DNA from: a virus
Taxonomy: Duplodnaviria > Caudoviricetes
Virus record (IMG/VR): IMGVR_UViG_2806310979_000001
Span: 49,554-113,553 of that record
DNA: 64,000 nucleotides
Strand: one strand, 5' to 3'
Shown: piece after piece, positions 30,001 through 33,000 of the stretch
Layout of the letters: every line of letters starts with the position of its first letter
How positions within the stretch are numbered: position 1 is the stretch's first letter
Position numbers: made by a program

Positions 30001-33000
30001 TTCCTTTTGCCGGAAAATCAGGAAAAAAGCATTATTTAAGGCTGGAAAACAGTGTAAAAACATTGTTTTTCCGGTCTTTTTTTGTGTGCCGAAAGGAGAG
30101 TGGAAAGGATGACGGACGCACAGGCAAAGCAGATCAACGAGATGCGTATGCGTGGCATGGGATATAAAGCCATCGGGATGGCAATCGGACTGTCCCGTGA
30201 CATCGTAAGGAATTACTGCAAGAGACACAACCTCGCCGGATACGCCACTGTGGTTTCAAAAAATATGAAACTCATGGTGGACGGTAAAGAGGTGTGCCAC
30301 TTCTGCGGTAATGCGATCACGCAGCCAAAAACTGGCAGACCGAGAAGGTTCTGCTGTGAAAAATGCAGGAGGGAATGGTGGAAAGCACATCCCGAAGCAG
30401 TACAGAAAAGTGAAAAGGCTTCTTACACGCTTGTATGTGAGCAGTGCGGGAAGTCTTTCATTTCCTATGGAAACAAGAACAGAAAATACTGCGGCCGTGA
30501 ATGTTATTTCCGGCACAGATTTTTAGCAGAGGAGGATATGGAAGATGCAGTTTCAGAGTTATAAAATAGCAGACCTTATCCCGGCTTCCTATAATCCGAG
30601 GAAGAAGTTAAAACCGGGCGATAAGGAATATGAAAAAATCAAGAACTCCATTAAAGAGTTCGGGTATGTCGAGCCGATCATCATCAACTCAGACATGACC
30701 ATTATTGGAGGCCACCAGAGAGCTACGGTTCTTGCAGACCTCGGATACACGGAAGTGGAATGTATCGTGGTCGATATCGACAAGACCAAGGAGAAGGCAC
30801 TCAATGTTGCCCTCAATAAAATTACGGGCGAATGGAACAAAGAACTTCTGGCTGATCTCATCAAAGACCTTGAGGATTCGGATTTTGATGTCGGCATCAC
30901 GGGCTTTGAACCGCCGGAGATCGAACAGCTTTTTAATTCCGTGCATGATAAGAAGATCACGGAAGATGACTTCGATGTGGAAGCGGAGCTTGCAAAGCCG
31001 ACCGTGGCAAAGACAGGGGATGTATGGCTGCTTGGAAAGCACCGTGTCATCTGCGGTGATTCCATCTTGCCGGAAACCTACGAAAGGCTGATGGATGGAC
31101 GGAAAGCAAATCTTGTCCTGACTGACCCGCCATACAATGTAAATGTCGAGGAGACGGCCGGCAAGATCAAAAATGACAACATGCCGGATGAGGATTTCTA
31201 TAAGTTCCTGTTTGCTGCATTTGTAAATATGGAGCAGTCAATGGAACAGGATGCTTCCATTTATGTATTCCATGCGGATACAGAGGGGCTGAATTTCAGA
31301 AAGGCATTCAAGGATGCCGGATTTTACCTTTCCGGGTGCTGCATCTGGAAGAAGAACGCACTGGTCCTTGGAAGAAGCCCGTACCAGTGGCAGCACGAGC
31401 CGTGTCTGTTCGGATGGAAGAAAGGCGGGAAGCACCAGTGGTATTCCGACAGGAAGCAGACCACCATCTGGGAATATAACCGTCCGAAGGCAAGCAAGGA
31501 CCATCCGACCATGAAGCCTGTGGCGCTTATGGCATATCCAATCCAGAACTCCTGCAAGAGCAACTGCATCGTGCTTGATCCGTTCCTTGGTTCCGGCACT
31601 ACGCTGGTCGCCTGTGAGCAGACACACCGTATCTGCTATGGCATCGAACTGGATGAGAAGTTTGTGGATGTGATCGTAAACCGCTACATTGAACAGTGCG
31701 GTTCGGATGCGGATGTATTTGTCATCCGTGACGATATGAAAATTTCATATCAGCAATTATGCAGGGGAGGGCAGTACAATGAAACAGATGACCTTCCTTG
31801 ATCTATGTTCCGGCATCGGCGGCTTCAGGCTCGGTCTTGAAACTGCCGGCCATAAATGCATCGGGTACTGTGAATATGATAAATTTGCAAGAGCCTCATA
31901 TGAGGCAATGTATGATACGGAAGGAGAGTGGAAAGCTCATGATGTCACAAAACTCAAACCCGAAGATGTCCCCTATGCAGACATCTGGTGCTTCGGATTT
32001 CCATGCCAGGACATCTCCGTTGCCGGAAAACAGCGGGGACTGGTCGGAAAAAGAAGTGGAATATATTACAACATTATTGACCTCCTCAAAGGCAAAGAGG
32101 AAAGTGCTAAACCCTCATACCTACTTGTTGAGAACGTTAAGAACCTGTTATCGATCAATGCAGGATTCGACTTTGCCTCAGTTCTGTCTGAAATGGACGA
32201 AGCAGGGTATGACTGTCGGTGGCAGGTGCTTAACTCCAAAAACTTCGGAGTCCCGCAGAACCGTGAGCGTGTGTTCATTATCGCAAATCTTAGAAGCAGA
32301 GGTAGACGAGAAATATTACCTCTCACCGGAGAAAACGCAGCAGCTCTTAACCAGCTTATAGGAGGTATGCAGGGCTACCGTGTTTATGGGACGGACGGCA
32401 TTTCCGCAACCCTTGTGGGGAATGCGGGCGGTGTCGGGGCCAAGACGGGTCTTTACTTCATCGACCAGAGCAACCATGATCCGAAGATCACGGATACGGC
32501 AAGATGCCTGACAGCGAGGTACACAGCCGGGATGACCAACCATACCGCCATGAACTCAGCCGTGCTGGAAGTCCACCCGGTGCTTACACCGGAGCGGATG
32601 GAGAAACGGCAGAACGGAAGACGGATGAAAGAGGACGGAGAGCCGATGTTCACCCTGACCTCTCAGGACAGGCACGGTGTGTATGTCTGTGAAAAGGTGG
32701 ATTTCGTCAAAGTAAAAAATGCCACGAAGGCAGGATATGAAGTGGCACGGGAAGGGGACGGTATCAACCTTGCCTACCCAGACAGTGAGACAAGAAGGGG
32801 ACGGGTCGGAAAAGGATGCTCCCAGACACTGGACTGTTCCGGGCAGATGGGAACGCTCATGAGGGGCGGCCGCATCAGACGGCTGACTCCGAGGGAGTGC
32901 TTCCGCTTACAGGGATTTTCTGATGAGCTTTTTGACCGTGCCTCTGCCGTCAACTCTGCTGCACAGCTTTATAAACAGGCCGGAAATGCAGTCACCGCAA

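Follow-up and report, generated by a model that had tools for sequence, protein, structure and literature searches.

Comparative evidence for a 140-codon gene nested in the +1 frame of a phage C5 DNA methyltransferase gene

This work concerns a C5 DNA cytosine methyltransferase (C5-MTase) gene and a second reading frame inside it, both located in a 64,000-nucleotide (nt) stretch of the Caudoviricetes record IMGVR_UViG_2806310979_000001 (positions 49,554 to 113,553), which we call the window and in which positions are counted. The MTase gene (31779..33047, + strand) encodes a protein of 422 amino acids (aa) with all ten conserved motifs, referred to below as the main chain or frame 0. Its translation matched the Pfam profile PF00145 over positions 1-322 of 324 (223.9 bits, cut-off 22, E 4.6e-66) and the NCBIfam profile TIGR00675 (dcm) over the full length (232.7 bits, cut-off 100.65, E 8.7e-69). 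PCQ (motif IV), ENV (VI), QxRxR (VIII), motif IX and GN(A/S)V (X) were all found in this one frame, in which motif I is also visible. Motif IX, read like motif X from the translation, is RRLTPRECFRLQGF. Between motif VIII and the QG.RVY block the main chain has just a linker of ~25 residues.

The +1 frame of the gene is free of stop codons from 31792 to 32358 (189 codons), between a TGA at 31789 and a TAG at 32359. An earlier note on this DNA had pointed to a 187-codon open reading frame (ORF) in this stretch, starting with TTG (31798..32361, + strand) and ending in a SQILEAEVDEKYYLS-type motif, and both the coordinates and the C-terminal motif were as described. We would not keep the TTG as the start of the protein: ATG 31939 is most likely the true start, giving a nested gene of 140 codons plus TAG (31939..32361, + strand), which overlaps frame-0 codons 54-194 (motifs II to VIII), has a conserved ATG, length and stop, and corresponds to the family PHROG 16143. 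The AAGGAG, a Shine-Dalgarno-like sequence that had also been noticed, is present at 31921..31926 (+ strand), 12 nt 5' of this ATG. At the other end the nested TAG (32359..32361, + strand) is made up of a frame-0 NTA codon and the G of the following Gly codon, and is preceded by the best-conserved block of the nested protein, its C-terminal 29 residues (LSQILE..VDEKYYLS..EKT..LL; 32272..32358, + strand), as judged from the alignment and from hhalign comparison with the MTase of phage SPR.

In the remaining 229 codons of the C5-MTase gene there are 9 stops in the +1 frame, and the +2 frame of the gene contains 28. When the codons of the gene were shuffled synonymously, a longest +1 run of at least 189 codons was obtained with P = 0.0008; 5.6 stops were expected in the stretch and none was observed (P = 0.0002). 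By itself, after the scanning of a 64-kb window, such a result from a single gene is merely suggestive of a real gene. The window offers internal negative controls in the C5-MTase pair of a restriction-modification (RM) island (7972-9078 and 9044-10096; 368 and 350 codons, 35-nt mutual overlap, AT-rich), both members of which run into a +1 stop every 12 codons or so, in agreement with the earlier statement that neither has a comparable frame.

Stop-codon depletion in the homologues had been set beforehand as a check. We fetched 80 IMG/VR loci encoding relatives and examined 51 genes (60-100% identity); in 50 of these no +1 stop occurs between codon 3-35 and codon 190-193, and their C-terminal halves hold 10-20 +1 stops. 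The sole closed frame belongs to locus L075, which differs from L073 by one nucleotide over the whole gene: CGA is changed to CTA at codon 174, which closes the nested frame with a stop and replaces R by L in frame 0. A codon alignment of 28 dereplicated relatives (protein identity down to 60%) was used for closer comparison. At the position of 31939, 27 of the 28 have an ATG and the other a GTG, the product measures 140 aa with a single exception of 141, the TAG is invariant and the C-terminal 29-residue block is almost so. The frame-0 residue that overlies the nested start is H, D, Y or N depending on the relative, always encoded by a NAT codon, and this restriction to NAT codons preserves the nested ATG. 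The GAA GGA GAG codons that span the AAGGAG are near-fixed at their synonymous positions.

The synonymous sites of frame 0 trace the same boundaries. Synonymous-codon identity at conserved residues, computed in sliding 15-codon windows, is 0.38-0.48 over codons 6-30, climbs to 0.6-0.89 from about codon 21-35 to codon 195, and falls to a 0.40 baseline past the nested stop; in the codon alignment the frame-0 synonymous positions become free directly after the TAG. The 5' part of the stop-free stretch (31792..31938, + strand) is probably outside the conserved product: relatives have +1 stops at frame-0 codons 9-35, and their +1 identity in this region is only about 0.49. Synonymous constraint is intermediate here (0.57-0.69), which would fit a translation-initiation region upstream of ATG 31939. 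Inside the overlap an overlap-aware estimate of dNN/dNS for the +1 frame was 0.46 (0.34-0.62), to be compared with 0.80 in the downstream control region, 0.88 before the overlap and 1.36 for the +2 frame, and dSN (synonymous in frame 0, non-synonymous in +1) amounted to 0.54 within the overlap, whereas outside it was saturated. Over codons 176-193 the +1 product is even better conserved than frame 0 (identity 0.76 vs 0.63), whereas outside the nested gene the identity of the +1 'product' is just 0.32-0.35. The frozen synonymous sites cannot be put down to recombination or to a recent common origin of the N-terminal half, because the two halves of the MTase have similar protein identity (e.g. 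0.78 vs 0.70) and very different third-position identity (0.72 vs 0.30). The comparison of relatives shows purifying selection on the start, stop, length and protein sequence of the predicted nested gene.

A second clade of MTases, found through a database match, has the same arrangement. In its example L086 the MTase lies at 2227-3636 of that locus and a nested ORF of 145 aa at 2438-2875. Of 56 full-length genes, 55 have an open +1 run of about 150 codons (mostly 150, with 151 in three genes and 141 in one that a contig end truncates), and synonymous constraint is likewise confined to the nested stretch. A +1 ORF at the same place and with the same C-terminal motif was also present in nine distant genes: those of Streptococcus pneumoniae phage MM1, S. 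thermophilus phage P0093, Lactococcus phage D7893, Clostridioides phage phiCD27, Bacillus phage BhaS171, Methanobacterium virus Drs3, virus Rctr41k, Vibrio phage 138 and coliphage P1 (dmt). Together with L086 these make ten distant genes, in which the ORF is 141-207 codons long with per-gene shuffle P values from <0.0003 to 0.07; in the AT-rich phages among them (35-42% GC) the P values range from <0.0003 to 0.003. The MTase gene of SPR served as a control, its longest +1 run being 37 codons (P = 0.9). It must be noted that the similarity of the N-terminal blocks of nested proteins among distant phages was not used as evidence, being largely forced by the conserved frame-0 motifs. We relied on synonymous-site tests rather than on family hits for this reason, part of the family resemblance being imposed by MTase motifs read out of step.

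The open frame, the synonymous constraint, dNN/dNS, the second clade and the distant genes agree with each other and with the earlier proposal of a hidden second protein-coding gene. They strongly support the view that the C5-MTase gene at 31779-33047 is dual-coding, with a putative second gene of 140 codons in its +1 frame, and we consider it very probable that this gene is real and expressed. Neither an internal promoter nor a terminator nor an Rfam element was found. In the absence of these and of a conserved slippery site, it is simplest to suppose that translation initiates independently inside the gene: ribosomes would start at ATG 31939, behind the conserved AAGGAG, on the MTase mRNA and produce a protein of ~16 kDa.

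The predicted nested protein belongs to a family that is already represented in databases. It matched phrog_16143 with E 2.1e-19 (nested residues 3-137, profile positions 6-136 of 139), and its location at codons 54-193 of the window gene, in +1, agrees with the placement of MM1 ORF14 and PHROG 16143, which extend from before motif IV to ~20-50 codons past motif VIII. A profile built from 30 nested proteins retrieved 2021 database clusters, many of them of 140-160 aa; most of the longer members that were looked at proved to be frameshift chimeras. In the searches made the family was always found inside C5-MTase genes and never as a free-standing gene. Searches of Pfam, NCBIfam and PDB sequences with the +1 product returned no relative, and the ESM Atlas gave just weak, irrelevant neighbours.

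The last ~60 residues of the nested protein align to residues 177-245 of the SPR MTase, directly past its motif VIII (hhalign probability 82%, E 1e-5), and the tblastn match of the nested C-terminus falls in frame 0 of the SPR gene. The earlier note had recognized the L..ILE..VDEKYYLS segment as an in-frame element past motif VIII of other C5-MTases; SPR provides such a case, and the SPR-type segment was not found in the main chain of the window, to which the nested protein shows no similarity. A further suggestion, that the nested product is the equivalent of the beta polypeptide of M.EcoHK31I, did not stand: beta supplies motif IX, but our main chain has its own motifs IX and X, and motif IX is not present in the nested protein. 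For the first ~80 nested residues profile and sequence searches found no counterpart in any MTase.

The first ~80 residues would thus be overprinted on MTase motifs II-VI, and the last ~60 would represent the segment that M.SPRI-like enzymes carry in frame past motif VIII, where the chain enters the DNA-recognition (small) domain. We propose that the nested protein may bind the 422-aa MTase as an accessory chain, giving this segment in trans and so influencing how active, stable or specific the orphan phage enzyme is. A role as partner chain of the MTase is judged the likeliest, because the best-conserved part of the nested protein is an MTase element missing from the main chain and because enzymes that have the element in frame lack the nested gene; even so, we would put it at about an even chance, if that. 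Somewhat more tentative is the wider possibility of an obligatory role for the nested protein as second chain, carrying the DNA-recognition-domain entry segment, in a very large clade of C5-MTases of phages, integrative and conjugative elements (ICEs) and archaeal viruses, P1 Dmt included.

Several observations weigh against this interpretation. By sequence the main chain is complete, with the whole Pfam profile and motifs IX and X, so that nothing in it demands a second chain. The complementarity with an in-frame segment was seen with one tested enzyme, SPR, at the hhalign probability given above. The 12-nt distance between the AAGGAG and the ATG exceeds the optimum. AlphaFold modelled the nested protein with only moderate confidence (pLDDT 67, pTM 0.35), and a Foldseek search of the PDB with the model gave no match with E <= 0.001; two helices and an element at the C-terminus were nevertheless predicted confidently, and the low pTM may be compatible with an overprinted protein that folds fully only on its partner. 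The AlphaFold model of the main chain (pLDDT 55) is of too low quality to judge the loss of a structural element.

These points leave room for a different reading, in which the nested gene is translated and its product serves a purpose unrelated to completing the enzyme, such as regulation of the expression or timing of the MTase or a separate anti-defence or DNA-related function, and is tied to the MTase gene merely by the overlap. All ten motifs being in the main chain, the lack of an MTase counterpart for the first ~80 residues and the unrecognized fold speak for such a function, as do loci in which the MTase is broken and the nested ORF is intact (L120, L148). The best-conserved part of the nested protein, however, coincides with the segment homologous to an in-frame MTase element, and the family was met only within C5-MTase genes. 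A function unrelated to the enzyme is a serious possibility, ranking nearly as likely as the partner-chain role.

Programmed ribosomal frameshifting near motif VIII, rather than a start at 31939, could give a truncated N-terminal MTase domain with a +1 tail, and frame-0 motif VIII followed by such a tail would reproduce the order of elements known from SPR and similar enzymes made of a single chain. The +1 frame, however, is under selection as far as 115 codons upstream of motif VIII, the nested frame has its own conserved ATG and Shine-Dalgarno sequence, and neither a conserved slippery heptamer in the 28-sequence codon alignment nor an Rfam match was found. Since the synonymous constraint vanishes right past the stop, there is no downstream stimulator of frameshifting. 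On the slippery-site and post-stop evidence we rejected this mechanism, which we regard as very improbable.

It is equally hard to credit that there is no second protein, and that the open frame and the frozen synonymous sites come from constraint at the nucleotide level (RNA structure, DNA sites, recombination) or are the relic of an ancestral frame: much of the +1 similarity of distant MTases is indeed forced by frame-0 motifs (by our reasoning, motif IV read in +1 yields a recurring SDSHAKT-like block), but start, stop and length are conserved, dNN/dNS is by our reading below 1 only for the +1 frame in the overlap, long open frames occur at the same place in AT-rich phages with the low shuffle P values given above, recombination would have raised protein identity as well, and Rfam gave no match.

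The relatives contain recurrent natural frame variants (L084, L128, L138; L103, L105; L120, L148). In one type an ORF contains motifs I-VI, and motifs VIII-X continue in frame from the nested N-terminus, an arrangement also seen in P0254, which is present on 16 contigs. In another type motifs I-VI are joined to the nested C-terminus and a separate ORF contains VIII-X; the third (L120, L148) is that of the broken MTase with an intact nested ORF. Pseudogenes, misassembly and truly split forms are all conceivable explanations of the variants. Long database proteins in which the nested domain is apparently fused in frame to the C-terminal half of the MTase (P0115, P0125, P0254, P0265 and others) were first read as a natural beta-like subunit; they are now treated as frameshift chimeras or pseudogenes, because they are mostly singletons and the frame switches mid-gene. 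P0269 (NCBI, 328 aa, on a 1.2-kb contig) apparently has a nested-type domain in frame with the target-recognition region and motifs IX-X, and lacks motifs I-VIII; it resembles the enzyme of Methanobacterium virus Drs3 and could represent a true beta-like chain or result from a frameshift in its gene.

As for the surroundings, the start of the C5-MTase gene is overlapped by 23 nt by a gene (30545-31801) for an N6/N4 DNA methyltransferase fused to a ParB N-domain (PF02195 + PF01555), the two genes forming the usual back-to-back orphan MTase pair of such phages. An AGGAGG (within 32361-32369) overlaps the nested stop and lies 1 nt 5' of the frame-0 ATG of Met197. PHROG 8411 (206 positions, 'unknown function') matches main-chain residues 197 to 404 exactly, which indicates that in some annotated phages the C-terminal half of the MTase is called as a separate protein.

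Long nested genes on the same strand are rare in phages and bacteria and seldom well supported; the one described here covers 420 nt, and the comparative evidence for it is unusually clean. The nested gene is met again in MTase genes of phages of Firmicutes and Proteobacteria, including the model phage P1, and of a methanogen virus. Because standard annotation drops it, phage 'orphan' MTases are cloned, expressed and interpreted unaware of a co-encoded protein. If the nested protein is part of the enzyme, the study of the specificity and anti-restriction function of these MTases must change; were it an obligatory second chain, the 'orphan methyltransferase' genes that in reality encode two-subunit enzymes in two frames would number hundreds to thousands, and the specificity or activity of these enzymes would depend on a 140-aa gene that is almost never annotated. 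If it is not part of the enzyme, a phage function as yet unknown is hitch-hiking in a very widespread gene.

It is instructive to compare the window gene with C5-MTases whose organization is known. In split enzymes of the M.AquI type the MTase consists of two polypeptides encoded by overlapping ORFs and divided in the variable region past motif VIII; the two ORFs overlap briefly and jointly provide one set of motifs. In contrast, the window has a complete single-chain gene with a fully nested second gene. The multispecific M.SPRI-type enzymes of Bacillus phages (SPR and the SPbeta group) are related to the window gene through SPR residues 177-245, which align with the C-terminal ~60 nested residues. 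In SPR, unlike in the window, the one polypeptide includes the segment, and stops close the +1 frame. M.EcoHK31I, an Escherichia coli enzyme recognizing YGGCCR, is similar in its genetic layout: beta is encoded wholly in another frame inside the alpha gene, alpha is without motif IX, which beta contributes, and the two chains have been shown to be needed together (PMC2836561). The likeness is that of a small chain encoded in another frame within the gene of the large chain. The differences are that our main chain, unlike alpha, has motif IX, and that the nested product, unlike beta, carries the post-motif-VIII segment and ~80 overprinted residues. M.EcoHK31I may therefore serve as a precedent for a nested second chain, though the allocation of motifs differs.

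The closest parallels are MM1 ORF13/ORF14, P0093_46/47 and the Tn5252 locus, in which, as in the window, a +1 ORF of ~140 aa lies inside a phage or ICE C5-MTase gene and ends just past motif VIII with the same C-terminal motif. The MM1 record annotates the nested ORF as ORF14, 'DNA methylation' (the main gene being ORF13), and that of P0093 as a second 'DNA methyltransferase'. McDonnell et al. (2017) noted an 'apparent total overlap' in phages of the 5093 group, citing MM1 (2003) and Tn5252 (1998); the accessible text of their paper offers no test of the overlap (PMC5601072). The expectation in the earlier note that annotation would miss the gene was thus borne out only in part: in PV036410, the record of a near-identical Lachnospiraceae phage, the nested gene is unannotated, but MM1 and P0093 have it annotated, PHROG 16143 exists and the overlap is in print. 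The nested kind is known, and tests of expression, selection and function are absent from the accessible parts of the MM1, 5093-group and Tn5252 reports. The window gene adds to a kind that is already known in print but functionally uncharacterized, and it does so from a Lachnospiraceae or Coprococcus gut phage, that is, from another host and another clade than the streptococcal forms, with a nested protein 36-40% identical to theirs.
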